NCBI RefSeq assembly: GCF_044324875.1
Contig: NZ_CP172185.1
Strand: one strand, 5' to 3'
DNA length: 64,000 nt
Origin: Escherichia coli
GTDB lineage: Bacteria; Pseudomonadota; Gammaproteobacteria; Enterobacterales; Enterobacteriaceae
Below, piece after piece: positions 2,421-46,075 of this stretch. How positions within the stretch are numbered: the stretch's first letter is position 1; the number at the start of each line of letters is the position of its first letter. A model generated the notes under the pieces. The model was not told the origin of the DNA. It did not search any database and saw only the letters and a list, made by a program, of their open reading frames with translations. A program made the translations under genes and the position numbers.

Positions 2421-3152
2421 TCACCTGCCATCCAGTAGACGCCCCGGCCCACGACTGCAACCATAATTACGTTGCCCGGAACCGTTATGCAACTTCGTTT
2501 CATATTTCACGAGATAACTGGCTCTGTTCCGGGCTTTCTGCATCGCTTCCACATCACCACGCTTGACCCAGAGCACAGCGGATTCACCCGGCTTTTTGTC
2601 TGAAGCCTTCCTGGTATCAGAACATCCACCCGACAAAGGCGTATCATCGGAAGAAGGGCGAGCATCAGATGATGTCGGTTTACGGAAAGGCGTCCGCCTG
2701 GAAAAATGAACCAGTCCATTACCCTGCCAGGGCTCAAGATGCAGAGCACTACACCATGCCAGCTTGATCAGTGTCGCCAGCGAAGAAGGAACGGTGAAAT
2801 CCCCTGGCGAGCACCAGGTATCTTTGTTGAGCAGCAATATCACGTGATAATGTTTCCTGCCTTTTTCCTTGCCAAACTCCCGGCACCAGAAATAACGCAG
2901 AGTGGTTGCACGCACACGCTTGTTGGCACGTCGTTTTTTCCGCTGGTAAGCCTGAATTTTGGCTTTCAGGGATGCAAAAAAACGAGAAATCACCGCTGAA
3001 TCCGGATCGGGATCCATGATGGTGACAGGCATATACTCAGGGAAACGTAAATCCACCCGGATTAACGAGACGGCACGGTGCTGCGCCAGGGCACTGTCGA
3101 GAAGGCTGTCAAAACGGGATAACCAGTAAGCATTATGTATTGGTTGATTCAT
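2421..3152 (-). CDS. YfjJ/YagK-family (inovirus Gp2-like) protein
   Basis: 243-aa protein with LIRVDLRFP and HYHVILLLN motifs as remembered for the YagK/YfjJ family of CP4-type islands; GGAG ribosome-binding site about 10 nt upstream of the ATG on the minus strand. Confidence 0.55.
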   Translation of the reverse strand: MNQPIHNAYWLSRFDSLLDSALAQHRAVSLIRVDLRFPEYMPVTIMDPDPDSAVISRFFASLKAKIQAYQRKKRRANKRVRATTLRYFWCREFGKEKGRKHYHVILLLNKDTWCSPGDFTVPSSLATLIKLAWCSALHLEPWQGNGLVHFSRRTPFRKPTSSDARPSSDDTPLSGGCSDTRKASDKKPGESAVLWVKRGDVEAMQKARNRASYLVKYETKLHNGSGQRNYGCSRGPGRLLDGR

Positions 3153-3195: not shown

Positions 3196-4282
3196 TCACC
3201 GCAGTAAAACTTTACGGCGTCCTGTCATTAAGCAACACCAGTGGCTCCTGATTAGAACAGAATGAGTTTCCCACGAACAAAAAGACAAACCTACACGCAG
3301 GGTAAAAACACGCAACAACAGCATGAATGGATTTGAAAACAATATGGATGACGAAAAATGTCAAAAGTGAAACGGATCAACAGAACGTGCAAACAAAACG
3401 TCAGAAACGCAATCAGAGCACTTTCTGGCGCTGTGAATCAACAACAACACCAAAACCTACAGCTTAACCACATTACTCAATCACGAATGCGAATGACACG
3501 TTTAAAACCTGTTTACAGATAACGCCGTAACACGATCATCCCCATCACCATCAGAATCGATTTTCTCATCCCGAAAATGTTACGTTTCACTACGCACCAT
3601 AAAAACGATTAACCATCGATAACGTAAATCTCATCTGAATCAAAAAACCAAAACCAATCATCACACTTTCGCAATGCAAGAAGAAAAACCACATCATGAC
3701 GAAAACAATGACCTTACATGAAAAAGCAAAACGTCAGGAATCGTTAATGCCTCAATCTGATTGTTATCAAAACATCCAGAAAGTCGTTTAACAGAATCGT
3801 CGTAAGCACATCGAAAAGAACGTCAGATCACCTCAGGAAAGTTCGGGTTGATTTAGCGTAAAGATACTTTTCTCAGCTTAACGTCGAAACACAAACCAAA
3901 AACCACAAACAACCAAAGCTCAGGAAAGGTTAAACGTCACATCAGTAAAATCGAATAGCAGATTGATTGCTTAAACAGAAAGGTTTTACAGCAGCTTTAA
4001 ACTGATTTTAGCTAACGTAAAGATTTACTAAACTGGATGAGTTTCAGACAAAGCAATGTGTACAGCAATGCTTAATGAAAACACTTATAGGGCTGTTTAT
4101 GAAAACACGTGTATGTCTGGTAAAACACTTAGTAGAAAATACGTGTATAACACTTACTGAAATGCTTAGTAAAAATACTTAGTAAAATATGTAGACTGGC
4201 CCCCTGAATCTCCAGACAACCAGTATCACTTAAATAAGTGATAGTCTTAATACTAGTTTTTAGACTAGTCATTGGAGAACAG

Positions 4283-4648
4283 ATGATTGATGTCTTAGGG
4301 CCGGAGAAACGCAGACGGCGTACCACACAGGAAAAGATCGCAATTGTTCAGCAGAGCTTTGAACCGGGGATGACGGTCTCCCTCGTTGCCCGGCAACATG
4401 GTGTAGCAGCCAGCCAGTTATTTCTCTGGCGTAAGCAATACCAGGAAGGAAGTCTTACTGCTGTCGCCGCCGGAGAACAGGTTGTTCCTGCCTCTGAACT
4501 TGCTGCCGCCATGAAGCAGATTAAAGAACTCCAGCGCCTGCTCGGCAAGAAAACGATGGAAAATGAACTCCTCAAAGAAGCCGTTGAATATGGACGGGCA
4601 AAAAAGTGGATAGCGCACGCGCCCTTATTGCCCGGGGATGGGGAGTAA
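4283..4648 (+). CDS. insC: IS2 transposase OrfA (InsC)
   Basis: [56 protein letters not shown]... matches remembered IS2 InsC (121 aa). Confidence 0.95.
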
Positions 4649-5511
4649 GCTTAGTCAGCCGTTGTCTCCGGGTGTCGCGTGCGCAGTTGCACGTCATTCT
4701 CAGACGAACCGATGACTGGATGGATGGCCGCCGCAGTCGTCACACTGATGATACGGATGTGCTTCTCCGTATACACCATGTTATCGGAGAGCTGCCAACG
4801 TATGGTTATCGTCGGGTATGGGCGCTGCTTCGCAGACAGGCAGAACTTGATGGTATGCCTGCGATCAATGCCAAACGTGTTTACCGGATCATGCGCCAGA
4901 ATGCGCTGTTGCTTGAGCGAAAACCTGCTGTACCGCCATCGAAACGGGCACATACAGGCAGAGTGGCTGTGAAAGAAAGTAATCAGCGATGGTGCTCTGA
5001 CGGGTTCGAGTTCCGCTGTGATAACGGAGAAAAACTGCGAGTCACGTTCGCGCTGGACTGCTGTGACCGTGAGGCACTGCACTGGGCGGTCACTACGGGC
5101 GGCTTCAACAGTGAAACAGTACAGGACGTCATGCTGGGAGCGGTGGAACGCCGCTTCGGCAACGAGCTTCCGGCGTCTCCAGTAGAGTGGCTGACGGATA
5201 ATGGTTCATGCTACCGGGCTAATGAAACACGGCAGTTTGCCCGGATGTTGGGGCTTGAACCGAAGAGCACGGCGGTGCGGAGTCCGGAGAGTAACGGCAT
5301 AGCAGAGAGCTTCGTGAAAACGATAAAGCGTGACTACATCAGTGTCATGCCCAAACCAGACGGGTTAACGGCAGCAAAGAACCTTGCAGAGGCGTTCGAG
5401 CATTATAACGAATGGCATCCGCATAGTGCACTGGGTTATCGCTCGCCACGGGAATATCTACGGCAGCAAGCCAGTAATGGGTTAAGTGATAACAGGTGTC
5501 TGGAAATATAG
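4606..5511 (+). CDS. insD: IS2 transposase OrfB (InsD)
   Basis: 301-aa protein [34 protein letters not shown]... matches remembered IS2 InsD; overlaps insC as in IS2. Confidence 0.95.
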
Positions 5512-6227: not shown

Positions 6228-7019
6228 ATGACATTACGGATTAACGATCAGGGGCGAGATAAACAGAATCAATTTTTATCGAAAAATGGAGAAAATCTGA
6301 ATTCGTTAAAATCGCGTCATGTGCAGGATAGGCATTTACCTGAATGGCTTAAGGATAAAGTTGCAGCATTCTGGTTTTGTCTGGTGATAAAGGATATGAA
6401 AGTGTCAGGGAGCAGTTACTATGAACTTACCATGCAACTTCCCACTTCTGAAGAATCTGTTTGCATCAGTAAGCTGTCATCCTCAACCCATGAGATTCGG
6501 CTGGAGATCATCAGGCGATGGATTGATAGTGTAGCACAGATAGAAACGGAAGCTTTTACTAAAAATCTCGTTGATGCCATCTATAAAAACTGGAAGGAAA
6601 TCGGGAACAAAAACCAGGCTACATGGCTTAAAAAAAATCCGGAACAACTCGAGTGGGCATGGAAATATATTAACATTCGTATTCCCGAGTCACATTTAAC
6701 CTGGTTTTGCCCCGTCAATAACGAAGAGAAACGCATTGCCATCTTAGCATTGCTTAAAATACTGTATCCCGGAGATATACCATGCCAGTACAACGACAAA
6801 GAGTTTCATGTCGGGATCTGCGCTGAAGAACATTTTTACAGAAGAATGCACGACGCTTTCAGAAAACAGTTTATCGACGGGAAAAAAGATAAACGGGTAC
6901 AAATTAACGTAAAGATATCACCGTCCGCAAAAAGCGCTCTGGACAGACTGACCAGAGCGAGGAAAACAACACAGCAGGCTATTCTGGAACAACTGATTCT
7001 GAACGGTAGACTGGATTAA
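6228..7019 (+). CDS. hypothetical protein with a possible C-terminal ribbon-helix-helix-like DNA-binding tail
   Basis: ORF 6180..7019 trimmed to the ATG at 6228, preceded by AAGGAG; AT-rich; C-terminus VQINVKISPSAKSALDRLTRARKTTQQAILEQLI resembles strand-helix RHH motifs (inference). No family recognised. Confidence 0.45.
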   Translation: MTLRINDQGRDKQNQFLSKNGENLNSLKSRHVQDRHLPEWLKDKVAAFWFCLVIKDMKVSGSSYYELTMQLPTSEESVCISKLSSSTHEIRLEIIRRWIDSVAQIETEAFTKNLVDAIYKNWKEIGNKNQATWLKKNPEQLEWAWKYINIRIPESHLTWFCPVNNEEKRIAILALLKILYPGDIPCQYNDKEFHVGICAEEHFYRRMHDAFRKQFIDGKKDKRVQINVKISPSAKSALDRLTRARKTTQQAILEQLILNGRLD

Positions 7020-8002
7020 CTTTCACTACTTCCACTCCTGGCAGTTTTCCTCTTTTTGTAGTGTCTCCCGGCTGCAGGCATCAGGTACTTTTCCGTCATT
7101 TCGTTGCAGAACTCTTCAATGTAGTTAATCAGCTTCTGGTGTGCTTTCACCTTTTCTTCCCCGGGGGACGCTTTCAGATAAATGTCCTCCTTTTCCACAA
7201 GTGTATTTATAAACTCTCCCGGACATCCCTGGTTATAAAGCAACGTGAAAAACAACACATTCCCCAGTCTCTCCAGTAACTGCGATTTAACCCTGTATTG
7301 TTGTTTGCTGAGGATTGATTGTTTTATAAAGCTTAGTCTTGTTAAAAGTTGTTCAAATCCCGGTTCCAGTTTAAAAACAGATTTTAATACCAGGGACTGA
7401 TACTCCTGATAAAAAAGTTCAAACGTCGGGGATGCAGACTGACGAACAGATTTGGCTACAACCCATGGACTAAATCCCATGATTGGGATTTCCTTCGCTC
7501 CCTCCAGCGCACTCAGAGGTAGTCCAGCAATCCATGCGTCCAGCTTAGCCGAATCAATATCCCCGCTCAAAACCTCATACAAACTGCCCGTGAACGGTTG
7601 AGTCGGTTTTTTTGTTGTTTTACCTTCTGATTGCCTGAATCCATCCACTTTTCTCCGGATATTACGCGGAATCAGCATAAAAGGCGGGACATTAAGTGAT
7701 AAACGTTTACCCGTCATACGATACCAGTGGCCCACCTCAACCTTAATCCGTGTATCTGGCCTTGTATCTGGCCTTGTATCTGGCCTTAGCTCAAGTGCTA
7801 TTATGTTAAGCAGGTACAGATAACGCACCGTATAACAGTCAAAATGTTTCTCCGGATCAAACGGCTCTGATCGTTCTCTGCACACAAGTCCGCTGCGCTT
7901 CAGTATTCGCTGGGTATCTTTCCAGGCCTTACTCTGAAGAATGGTGGTAACTCTGGCTTTATTAGCAATCTCACGCAGCGCATCACTTTGTTGTGCCGTC
8001 AT
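7016..8002 (-). CDS. hypothetical protein containing a tandem (RPDT)x3 repeat
   Basis: ORF 7016..8017 trimmed to the ATG at 8002, preceded by GGAGG; AT-rich; 12-bp unit repeated three times at 7752-7787; convergent with and overlapping the 3' end of 6228..7019 by 4 bp. Confidence 0.45.
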   Translation of the reverse strand: MTAQQSDALREIANKARVTTILQSKAWKDTQRILKRSGLVCRERSEPFDPEKHFDCYTVRYLYLLNIIALELRPDTRPDTRPDTRIKVEVGHWYRMTGKRLSLNVPPFMLIPRNIRRKVDGFRQSEGKTTKKPTQPFTGSLYEVLSGDIDSAKLDAWIAGLPLSALEGAKEIPIMGFSPWVVAKSVRQSASPTFELFYQEYQSLVLKSVFKLEPGFEQLLTRLSFIKQSILSKQQYRVKSQLLERLGNVLFFTLLYNQGCPGEFINTLVEKEDIYLKASPGEEKVKAHQKLINYIEEFCNEMTEKYLMPAAGRHYKKRKTARSGSSES

Positions 8003-8108
8003 CTCTTCCCTCCACACTTTGTCACTCCAGATTTTTTCACGTCCATATTACCTGAATGATAAACCGGATTAGTGTGATCCGGTTCAGCGAAATCAACAGG
8101 ATACCGGT

Positions 8109-8993
8109 ATGTCATTCAGCCATTCTTCCCTCTCTGCACAAGTGAAATCATATCTGACGTTTCTTCCTGAAGAAATTCGCCAGAAAATCCTTGAACATCT
8201 CCACGGTGTTATTCATTACGAGCCCGTGATTGGCATTATGGGTAAATCCGGCACAGGCAAAAGCAGCCTGTGTAATGCCATTTTTCAGTCCCATATCTGC
8301 GCCACGCATCCCCTGAACGGCTGCACCCGCCAGGCTCATCACCTCACCCTGCAGATCGGTGAACGCAGAATGACGCTGGTCGATCTGCCCGGCATTGGTG
8401 AGACACCGCAGCATGATCAGGAATACCGGGCACTTTATCATCAGTTGCTACCGGAACTGGATCTGATTATCTGGATCCTGCGGGCTGATGAACGTGCGTA
8501 TGCTGCCGATATTGCCATGCATCAGTTTTTACTGAATGAAGATGCCGATCCCTCGCGTTTTCTGTTTGTTCTCAGCCATGCCGATCGCGTGTTTCCTGCT
8601 GAAGAATGGAACGACACAGAAAAATGCCCGTCCCGTCAGCAGGAACTCTCACTGGCGACAGTAACAGCCCGGGTGGCCACCCTGTTCCCGTCATCATTTC
8701 CGGTACTCTCCGTTGCAGCGCCTGTCGGCTGGAATCTTCAGGCACTGGTGTCACTGATGATCCACGCACTGCCACCACAGGCAACCAGCGCGGTTTATTC
8801 GCATATCCGGAATGAAAAGCGCACTGCGCAGGATCAGCAACACGCACAGCAGGCTTTTGGTGACGCCATCGGCCAGAGTTTTGACGCTGCCATTGCCCGG
8901 TTCAGCTTTCCGGCCTGGATGCTGCAGCTTCTGCGCAAAGCCCGTGATCGCATTATCCGCCTGCTGATCACACTGTGGGATCGCCTGTTCTGA
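8109..8993 (+). CDS. YeeP/YkfA/YfjP-family GTPase (50S ribosome-binding GTPase domain)
   Basis: P-loop GIMGKSGTGKSSLCNA and DLPG motif; layout as remembered for YkfA/YfjP/YeeP of CP4 islands. Full length here (294 aa). Confidence 0.7.
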   Translation: MSFSHSSLSAQVKSYLTFLPEEIRQKILEHLHGVIHYEPVIGIMGKSGTGKSSLCNAIFQSHICATHPLNGCTRQAHHLTLQIGERRMTLVDLPGIGETPQHDQEYRALYHQLLPELDLIIWILRADERAYAADIAMHQFLLNEDADPSRFLFVLSHADRVFPAEEWNDTEKCPSRQQELSLATVTARVATLFPSSFPVLSVAAPVGWNLQALVSLMIHALPPQATSAVYSHIRNEKRTAQDQQHAQQAFGDAIGQSFDAAIARFSFPAWMLQLLRKARDRIIRLLITLWDRLF

Positions 8994-13399: not shown

Positions 13400-14248
13400 A
13401 TGTCAGACATCACCATCTCCCGTCCGGAAGCGCTTAACGGACATACGGACCTTATCTGCTCCACAGATATCCGGCACGTTGTGACGGTACGGAATGAAGC
13501 ACTGCAACAAACCGAAAGGCTTATCCGGCAACTGGCAGAAATCTCAGCAATGACAGAAAGTATTGGCGGTAAAACTGTCCGGGACTGGGCCGTGAAACAG
13601 GATTTTCGCTGTGGCTGCTGGCTGATGGAAAAACCGGAAACCGCAATGAAAGCCATCACCCGTAACCTTGACCGCGAAATCTGGCGTGACCTGATGCAAC
13701 GCTCCGGGATGCTGAGTCTGATGGATGTACAGACGCGTGATTAATGGTACCGTTCACTGGAGGAGGATAATTTCCCGGAAATCAGCGAAGCGAATATCCT
13801 GAGCACGGCTGAACAACTGCACCGTAACAGGTATGAAATGGCTGAACGCGGCGTCATCAACCTCTTCAGGGGACTGAGCCGGACGCACAACAGCAGGTCA
13901 CCCTGTAAATTCGGCAGTAAGATTATCCTCAACAATCTGGTGAAATGGGACTGGTGGGGATTTGGTCTGAACCATGGTCCGCAGGCCGGGCAGCTTGCCG
14001 ACCTGGAAAGGATACTGTATCAGTTCAGCGGCAAACCCATACCCGATTACAGGGACAATATTATCATTCGTCTGGATGAGCACATCCGGTCCGTTCAGGG
14101 TAAAGCGTGCTATGAGGATGAGATGTTCAGCATCAGATACTTCAGGAAGGGCTCCGCGCATATCACGTTTAAACACCCGGAACTGGTGGAGAAGCTGAAT
14201 GCTGTTCTGGCGAAACATTATTCGGTAAAGTTCCATTCTTCTGTATAA
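13400..14248 (+). pseudogene. DUF4942-family gene interrupted by an in-frame TAA (13742-13744)
   Basis: ORFs 13400..13744 and 13838..14248 are in the same frame and joined by an open in-frame stretch (…WYRSLEEDNFPEISEANILSTAEQLHRNRYE…) apart from the single stop; the DUF4942 assignment is from memory of genes that follow cbtA/yeeW. Confidence 0.5.
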
Positions 14249-14555: not shown

Positions 14556-15215
14556 ATGCAGTTTGACTGGAGTGCCATCTGGCCTGCCATTCCGCTTCTG
14601 ATTGAAGGTGCCAAAATGACCCTGTGGATTTCGGTCCTCGGTTTGGCTGGCGGTCTGGTGATCGGATTGCTGGCAGGTTTTGCACGCACCTTCGGTGGTT
14701 GGATAGCCAACCACGTCGCGCTGGTCTTTATTGAAGTGATCCGCGGCACACCTATCGTCGTCCAGGTGATGTTTATTTATTTCGCCCTGCCGATGGCGTT
14801 TAACGACTTACGCATCGACCCGTTTACTGCGGCGGTGGTCACCATCATGATCAACTCCGGCGCGTACATTGCGGAAATCACGCGTGGTGCGGTGCTGTCT
14901 ATTCACAAAGGTTTTCGTGAAGCAGGACTGGCGCTCGGTCTTTCACGTTGGGAAACCATTCGCTACGTCATTTTACCGCTGGCACTGCGTCGTATGCTGC
15001 CGCCGCTGGGTAACCAGTGGATCATCAGTATAAAAGATACCTCGCTGTTTATTGTTATCGGCGTGGCGGAACTGACCCGTCAGGGGCAAGAAATTATTGC
15101 CGGTAACTTCCGCGCCCTTGAGATCTGGAGCGCCGTGGCGGTGTTCTATCTGATTATTACCCTGGTGCTGAGCTTTATTCTGCGTCGTCTGGAAAGAAGG
15201 ATGAAAATCCTGTGA
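14556..15215 (+). CDS. glnP: glutamine ABC transporter permease GlnP
   Basis: 219 aa; matches remembered K-12 GlnP. Confidence 0.95.
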
Positions 15216-44935: not shown

Positions 44936-45925
44936 TTAGCCGCCAATGTACGATAAGTTTTGCGTAATACCGGTGTTATTTTGATGCAGGAAATGGGTCT
45001 GTTTCTTCTCCCGCAGCGCCGCTGAAATACGCGCTTCCAGCGCCTGTTGCTGGGTATCGTCTTCCAGCAGATCGCGCAGGTTAACGCCGCCCTCACCAAA
45101 CAGGCAGAGATGGAGTTTACCAATGGAGGAAACGCGCAGGCGGTTGCAAGTGGCGCAGAAGTCTTTTTCATACGGCATGATAAGGCCAATCTCTCCGGCA
45201 TAATCTGGATGGCAAAAGACTTGCGCGGGACCGTCGCTGCGTTGACGTAATTGGTGGATCCAGCCGCGACGCAGTAGCTCGTCACGCAGAACCTGACCAG
45301 AGATGTGATGCTTACGGAAGAGCTCGCTGCCCTCGCCCGTTTCCATCAGTTCGATGAAACGCAGCTGGATGGGACGATGCTGTATCCAGTTCAGAAAGGT
45401 GTCGAGCTGATGATGATTAACATCACGCATCAGCACGGTATTGACTTTGACCTTCTCAAAACCGGCCTCAAATGCAGCATCGATCCCTGCCATGACCTGG
45501 TTGAATTTATCCTGCCCGGTAATAGCGTGAAACTGGCGGGCGTCCAGACTATCAACGCTGACGTTGATGCCAGTAAGTCCAGCATCGCGCCAGTTCGCCA
45601 CATCGCGTTCCAGACGGTAACCATTGGTGGTGACCGCAATCTGGCGGATAGCGTCGTTTTCTCGCACAGCGGCGATGATATCGGTAAAGTCGCGGCGTAA
45701 AGACGGCTCACCACCTGTCAGACGGACTTTTTCGGTGCCCAGACTGGCGAAGGCGCGTGTAACCCGGCGAATTTCATCGACGGTAAGAAAGCCTTTATTG
45801 GTGACGCCGCTCGGTTTGTAGCCATCCGGCAGGCAGTAGGTGCAACGAAAGTTACACACATCGGTAATCGACAGGCGCAAGTAGTAAAACTTACGCGCAA
45901 ATGCATCAGTCAGTTGTGAAGCCAT
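44936..45925 (-). CDS. moaA: GTP 3',8-cyclase MoaA (radical SAM)
   Basis: CNFRCTYC radical-SAM cluster motif; start trimmed to [24 protein letters not shown] (329 aa). Confidence 0.95.
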
Positions 45926-45929
45926 GTAC

Positions 45930-46075
45930 ACCTTTCCAGATACGGGAGGCGAAGTCATTTCTTCCTTCGCCCTGGTGGCAATCTTTACGAGCATTGTCAC
46001 GGCCAAAGCACCGTATCAGTTGACCCAGGTGCAGAGGCTAGAGTGTTTAGTGGTTAAGCCGATACTAGCGCGTAA
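45930..46075 (-). ncRNA. expected molybdenum-cofactor (Moco) riboswitch in the moaA 5' leader
   Basis: Placed by established knowledge that the E. coli moaABCDE leader carries the Moco RNA motif; I did not verify the conserved structure base by base. Confidence 0.45.

Follow-up and report, generated by a model that had tools for sequence, protein, structure and literature searches.

The locus studied here raises the question of whether a short perfect tandem repeat inside an Escherichia coli gene varies in copy number between strains and, if it does, how the variation arises and whether it matters to the encoded protein. The repeat lies in a stretch of 64,000 nucleotides of E. coli DNA (RefSeq assembly GCF_044324875.1, contig NZ_CP172185.1), hereafter called the window.

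The repeat array

An initial annotation, made from the sequence of the window, had described a 12-bp unit repeated three times in tandem at 7752-7787 within a coding sequence, and had translated it as RPDT repeats. Direct reading and Tandem Repeats Finder bear out this description on all points. The plus-strand unit, GTATCTGGCCTT, is present in three perfect, uninterrupted copies (7752-7763, 7764-7775 and 7776-7787). The coding strand is the minus strand, on which the unit is AAGGCCAGATAC and the codon register AGG CCA GAT ACA, three times in frame, gives RPDT. Tandem Repeats Finder places the array at 7751-7787 (period 12, 3.1 copies, 100% matches, no indels) with a score of 74, the highest among the 22 arrays listed for the window. 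In a repeat search, the periodicity reaches position 7748 (7748-7787) with one mismatch. The three RPDT units form residues 73-84 of a 328-aa open reading frame (ORF) at 7016-8002 on the minus strand; the array lies 216 bp inside this coding sequence and is outside the promoter.

Such an array is not expected by chance. When the window was simulated 300 times with a first-order Markov model, no perfect three-copy repeat with a period of 6-30 appeared, and the number expected analytically is about 2e-10. An artefact of sequencing or assembly, or a repeat that arose by chance in a non-coding pseudo-ORF, has virtually no probability as an explanation. The identical three-copy tract recurs in 50 complete genomes from unrelated projects and in 2,935 blocks of a public assembly index, and at 36-72 bp the tract fits within a single sequencing read. 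The ORF itself is conserved, is under purifying selection and has a confident in silico fold. Both explanations were rejected on the recurrence of the three-copy state, the chance figure, the dN/dS values and the AlphaFold2 model, the last two of which are described below.

Copy number in public assemblies

The protein was built with zero to seven RPDT units, and each version was looked up by exact sequence in the public assembly index. The three-unit protein, which is the state of the window, matched 2,935 index blocks, the two-unit protein 574 and the four-unit protein 57; the one-unit and five-unit proteins were found in 5 and 4 contigs, the six-unit protein in a single contig seen in 5 samples, and the versions with no unit and with seven units were absent from the index. 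The blocks cannot be treated as independent, some classes being inflated by repeated sampling of E. coli clones, and the counts are therefore to be read in rank order only. With this reading, three units is the modal state (approximately 82% of the exact-match blocks) and two units is common. Contraction is more frequent than expansion among the blocks, the two-unit class being far larger than the four-unit class.

The six length variants are full-length ORFs of 320, 324, 328, 332, 336 and 340 aa, and in the DNA of every locus fetched, from one unit to six, all units are perfect copies of AAGGCCAGATAC. It had been proposed from the window that a unit length divisible by three would allow the copy number to change without loss of frame, with an altered protein as the result, and that the locus might be variable. 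Both proposals hold, as one to six RPDT units were found on an otherwise identical protein. An on/off phase switch is ruled out: the 12-bp unit corresponds to four codons and every state is in frame, so that a change in copy number never switches the gene off.

Complete E. coli genomes were compared by means of a 261-bp probe across the repeat. Fifty records carry three units and are otherwise identical, against three in which exactly one unit has been lost and the rest is identical. Approximately 690 further records have diverged alleles with one non-identical unit. A metagenome scan for two or more units gave only two true loci, both contigs with two units, along with one unrelated gene that has a similar repeat. 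Copy number is thus not the same in all homologues, ranging from one to six in public assemblies, and the array is a real variable-number tandem repeat (VNTR), low in copy number and in frame.

On short time scales the array seems to change little. Four pairs of near-duplicate genomes (222/103, 2779/5283, ES1/ST38 and CT30/EC12) have three units in all members, and the six-unit contig is identical in the five samples in which it occurs. The rate of change is therefore probably not very high; these data argue against very high switching rates and suggest a locus that is stable over short periods.

A match to the 12-bp unit was also seen in the metagenome contig Ga0066388_101143611 (locus L012, 346-369), where GGTCAGATAC is followed by three AAGGCCAGATAC-type units in an unrelated gene and context. 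This match is coincidental.

Origin and recurrence of the length states

At the position of the repeat, diverged alleles read KSDT, REDT, RSDT, KPDT or an unrelated segment, and in distant homologues the loop is variable but keeps roughly the same length; RSVS is a further example of the unit in these relatives. Because the diverged alleles and the distant homologues have only a single, non-identical unit, the expansion is recent and allele-specific. One unit is therefore the ancestral state, and the array arose within a single allele lineage. A mosaic allele, RSDT-RPDT, was also found.

The same comparisons bear on a role of the array at the DNA level, as an iteron-like or operator-like array of binding sites or as an antisense or regulatory RNA feature. 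Such a role could be read into three perfectly identical direct repeats, each with a GGCC palindrome able to pair with that of the next unit. The array is nevertheless not conserved, since both the diverged alleles and the distant homologues keep a single unit of differing sequence and the copy number ranges from 1 to 6, and sites 12 bp apart do not stay in phase with the DNA helix. No Rfam match was found in the repeat region, and the ORF list of the window contains no plus-strand ORF across the repeat. A scan for promoters and terminators gave nothing at the repeat, the nearest consensus-like site (7345-7318, minus strand) being more than 400 bp away. A DNA-level function is extremely unlikely, and an iteron or operator array in particular was rejected because homologous loci keep neither the number nor the sequence of the units.

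Haplotypes of the locus can be told apart by their flanks, the adjacent GTPase gene differing by 3-8% between them. On haplotype A, arrays of one, three and four units are found with no SNP over about 1 kb upstream, the gene itself and 0.9 kb downstream. Haplotype B carries one, two, five and six units, haplotype C (that of the window) two and three, and haplotype D one and two; the three complete genomes with two units represent three different backgrounds. Since several copy numbers occur on one flanking haplotype, the changes are recurrent, and the strict minimum number of copy-number events is five. The six states overall, with several on one identical haplotype, require repeated gains or losses of whole units.

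The level of divergence changes abruptly along the locus. The 987-bp repeat-bearing gene shows 0-3 SNPs across loci, with six length states, and the adjacent GTPase genes (loci L006-L023, L028 and L029) differ by 27-71 SNPs in 885 bp. Near invariance of one gene across GTPase backgrounds that are 3-8% apart implies that the allele moved by recombination, with putative breakpoints near the 106-bp intergenic region, or that one allele may have spread recently across island backbones. A copy number common to several backgrounds may thus reflect transfer in part, and not independent slippage.

Other alleles have a second in-frame tandem duplication, of 9 bp, in another linker (GFRQSE to GFRQSRQSE; residues 123-125, window positions 7628-7636). 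Small in-frame repeat indels seem to recur in this protein.

The repeat-bearing gene

The coding sequence at 7016-8002 (minus strand) is identical to that of the hypothetical protein WP_029396404.1, for which RefSeq uses the ATG start that gives 328 aa. A longer alternative with a GTG start at 8017 would encode 333 aa (7016-8017). The corresponding DNA of E. coli strain 222 is 100% identical and is annotated with the same hypothetical protein. Of 5,426 complete E. coli genomes, 742 (approximately 14%) contain related DNA. Among alleles with 59-93% amino-acid identity the frame is kept and every length difference is a multiple of three. Pairwise dN/dS is 0.37-0.59 for this gene, and the partner gene beside it has values of 0.24-0.36. 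When 1.84 billion representative proteins were searched with a profile, only 50 relatives were returned at E<1e-3, of which about 17 are full-length with 22-32% identity, and the gene neighbourhood is preserved around relatives with only 24-32% identity. Conservation, the dN/dS values, a confident AlphaFold model and synteny in relatives establish the ORF as a real gene.

Searches with the 328-aa protein against Pfam, NCBIfam, PHROG and PADLOC gave no match, and no structural neighbour was found. A sequence search of the PDB gave nothing meaningful, the best hit being TenA (E 0.56). The protein therefore belongs to a small family without annotation or detectable structural relatives. Its N-terminus is hydrophilic by inspection, a surface location seems unlikely, and it is predicted to be a cytoplasmic, helical protein.

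The codon composition of the unit might have an effect on expression, in which copy number would set the dose of AGG codons toward the 5' end and so modulate the speed or yield of translation. AGG is the rarest arginine codon in E. coli, and each unit contributes one (residues 73, 77 and 81). The gene is AT-rich (44.8% GC) and already encodes 13 of its 24 arginines by AGA or AGG. Strong effects of AGG, however, are known for consecutive codons or for codons near the start; here three other codons separate one AGG from the next, and the array lies 72 codons from the start. We consider an effect of this kind very unlikely.

Predicted structure and the most probable mechanism

An AlphaFold2 model computed from 16 close homologues alone was unusable (pLDDT 47.8). 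With a deep alignment that included distant relatives, the mean pLDDT rose to 84.4, with a pTM of 0.84. The model is all-helical with the addition of a small sheet. The repeat is predicted as a coil between the helix at residues 56-72 and the strand at residues 88-92, with a local pLDDT of approximately 75-78, and the elements on either side are well predicted. In the alignment of alleles and homologues the repeat segment has the lowest conservation within the N-terminal half of the protein. The modelled loop is probably exposed to solvent, and residues 73-84 evidently accept insertions.

The explanation that we favour, and judge to be probable, is a low-copy in-frame VNTR that varies by replication slippage in a tolerant loop, with near-neutral changes in length. 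An ancestral single 12-bp unit encoding R/K-x-D-T, situated in this poorly conserved loop, would have been duplicated in one allele lineage. Later gains and losses of whole units would have followed, most probably through slipped-strand misalignment during replication, to give proteins that differ by four-residue steps in loop length. Slippage between short tandem repeats during replication is an established mechanism that is independent of RecA. Pairing of GGCC between adjacent units could stabilize the slipped intermediates. As the loop tolerates changes in length, they are most likely close to neutral and affect function little or not at all.

Comparison with other repeat loci

Coding VNTRs used in multilocus VNTR analysis (MLVA) of E. 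coli, Shigella and Salmonella, such as the O157 and generic CVN loci, consist of short head-to-tail units with a copy number that varies between strains. The RPDT array resembles them in its conserved flanks, in presumed replication slippage and in the tolerance of in-frame units within an ORF. It differs in its 12-bp unit, its range of 1-6 copies with a mode of 3, its restriction to one allele lineage and its position on a mobile island present in a minority of complete E. coli genomes.

The Xr region of Staphylococcus aureus protein A, with 24-bp in-frame repeats, is the basis of spa typing. As in Xr, the RPDT unit is a multiple of three, whole units change without a frameshift, and the region is spacer-like with low constraint. 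The Xr repeats are numerous and degenerate and belong to the cell-wall-spanning region of a surface protein, whereas the RPDT array consists of few, perfect units and lies in a loop of a helical protein that is predicted to be cytoplasmic.

Contingency loci of Haemophilus, Neisseria and Campylobacter have units of 1-7 bp that are not divisible by three, or have repeats located in promoters, and they switch on and off at high rates. The RPDT array shares with them repeat-mediated, reversible and recurrent mutation at a defined site. In contrast to these loci, its 12-bp unit is always in frame and near-duplicate genomes have the same count.

A full-text search of open-access papers for the unit in its six rotations returned only unrelated eukaryotic primer matches. 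The protein accessions had no match in the open-access literature, in which no E. coli MLVA scheme with a 12-bp unit was found either. The locus does not seem to be an established typing marker. It is an ordinary small coding VNTR and no new kind of system; in practice it is of use as a minor length polymorphism by which one allele of a common E. coli island can be followed.

Gene neighbourhood and the question of selection

Pfam hits, ORF order and the RefSeq annotation of the identical locus show that the window carries the gene set of a CP4-like island, co-linear and in the usual order. A YagK/YfjJ-type gene lies at 2421-3152 (minus strand). It is followed by an IS3-family element at 4238-5511, composed of an HTH_Tnp_1 orfA (4238-4648) and an orfB-like ORF (4606-5511). 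The partner gene (6228-7019, plus strand; 263 aa, hypothetical protein WP_000175256.1 in the identical locus) is convergent with the repeat-bearing gene, and their 3' ends overlap by 4 bp. In Pfam, NCBIfam, PHROGs and PADLOC the partner has sub-threshold hits only, with a weak similarity to ribbon-helix-helix proteins. On the other side, a GTPase gene of the YeeP/YfjP/YkfA type (8109-8993, plus strand; MMR_HSR1 domain, PF01926, E 7e-15) is divergent from the repeat-bearing gene and always adjacent to it in the loci examined. A search of open-access papers for YeeP, YfjP and YkfA gave nothing relevant.

The position of the repeat gene between a YagK/YfjJ-type gene and a GTPase gene is that of the CP4-57, CP4-44 and CP4-6 backbone, as in related islands. 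Unlike the backbone genes, the repeat gene and its partner belong to no named family and are replaced in some islands, for example in isolate ECCNB12-2, where a 407-aa ORF occupies their position. The trio of GTPase, repeat gene and convergent ORF (259-320 aa) is otherwise kept down to approximately 25-30% identity, including in record CP011132.1. The host gene family, always paired with a YeeP/YfjP-type GTPase, is of more interest than the repeat itself.

This association bears on a second reading of the length variation, in which the loop would be a functional contact with the GTPase, the convergent partner or a phage or host factor, and would be subject to adaptive tuning or diversifying selection. 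If the three-gene module serves in defence or island maintenance, copy-number changes would be selected for altered spacing or for escape from an antagonist. The conservation of the module across genera is consistent with such a role, and the GTPase has a weak match to the PADLOC candidate-defence model LeoBC (E 4e-7), although the PADLOC defence models match neither the repeat-bearing protein nor its partner. Among close alleles no stretch varies more than the loop, which has P, S or E at the second position of the unit and is replaced wholesale in the MS7163-type allele; multiple length states persist in the population; and other alleles show the further in-frame duplication described above, RQS to RQSRQS. 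A loop free of constraint would, however, be expected to be just as variable and as tolerant of length change, the gene as a whole has a dN/dS below 1, and the single three-unit state dominates. We consider selection on loop length to be unlikely, and near-neutral slippage remains our preferred explanation.

A more specific proposal is that the GTPase, the 328-aa protein and the 263-aa partner form a functional module, for example in defence or island maintenance, in which the RPDT loop acts as a specificity or spacer element with its length under fluctuating selection. We give this proposal a low probability; if it were true, the VNTR would be an in-frame tuning knob of the island module and not neutral slippage noise. 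Should loop length affect function in any way, the natural series of one to six units would be a ready-made allelic series for the module.

The 106-bp intergenic region (8003-8108), from which the repeat-bearing gene and the GTPase gene diverge, presumably holds the promoters of both, and a scan of it for sigma-70 consensus sequences found no promoter-like site. It contains a degenerate 15-bp direct repeat at 8006-8049 (2.9 copies, 75% matches; Tandem Repeats Finder). A 16-nt inverted repeat has arms at 8052-8067 and 8104-8119, the second of which overlaps the GTPase start codon. These repeats are possible operator or regulatory sites.

Other features of the window

In strain 222, whose repeat gene is 100% identical over 7016-8017, the spacer that separates the partner gene from the YagK/YfjJ-type gene is approximately 1.4 kb shorter than in the window, and the IS3-family insertion therefore looks specific to the island of the present strain. 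Beyond the GTPase gene lie, in order, genes for DUF932, antirestriction, RadC, CbeA/CbtA, DUF5983 and DUF4942 proteins, and then chromosomal glnP, which is named from a related locus. The DUF4942 gene is split into ORFs at 13400-13744 and 13838-14248, lacks domain positions 28-60 and is probably a pseudogene. The island ends approximately 300 bp before glnP (14556-15215), with no glnH between them within the window. The same junction between island and glnP is present in ECCNB12-2, and the island appears to be inserted at the glnHPQ operon.

Rfam searches of the window also identified a Moco riboswitch (45913-46057, minus strand, 103 bits), naRNA4 (23872-23942, plus strand, 78 bits) and the ES036 sRNA (30615-30657, plus strand, 41.5 bits). 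These are ordinary features of the E. coli chromosome, unrelated to the repeat.
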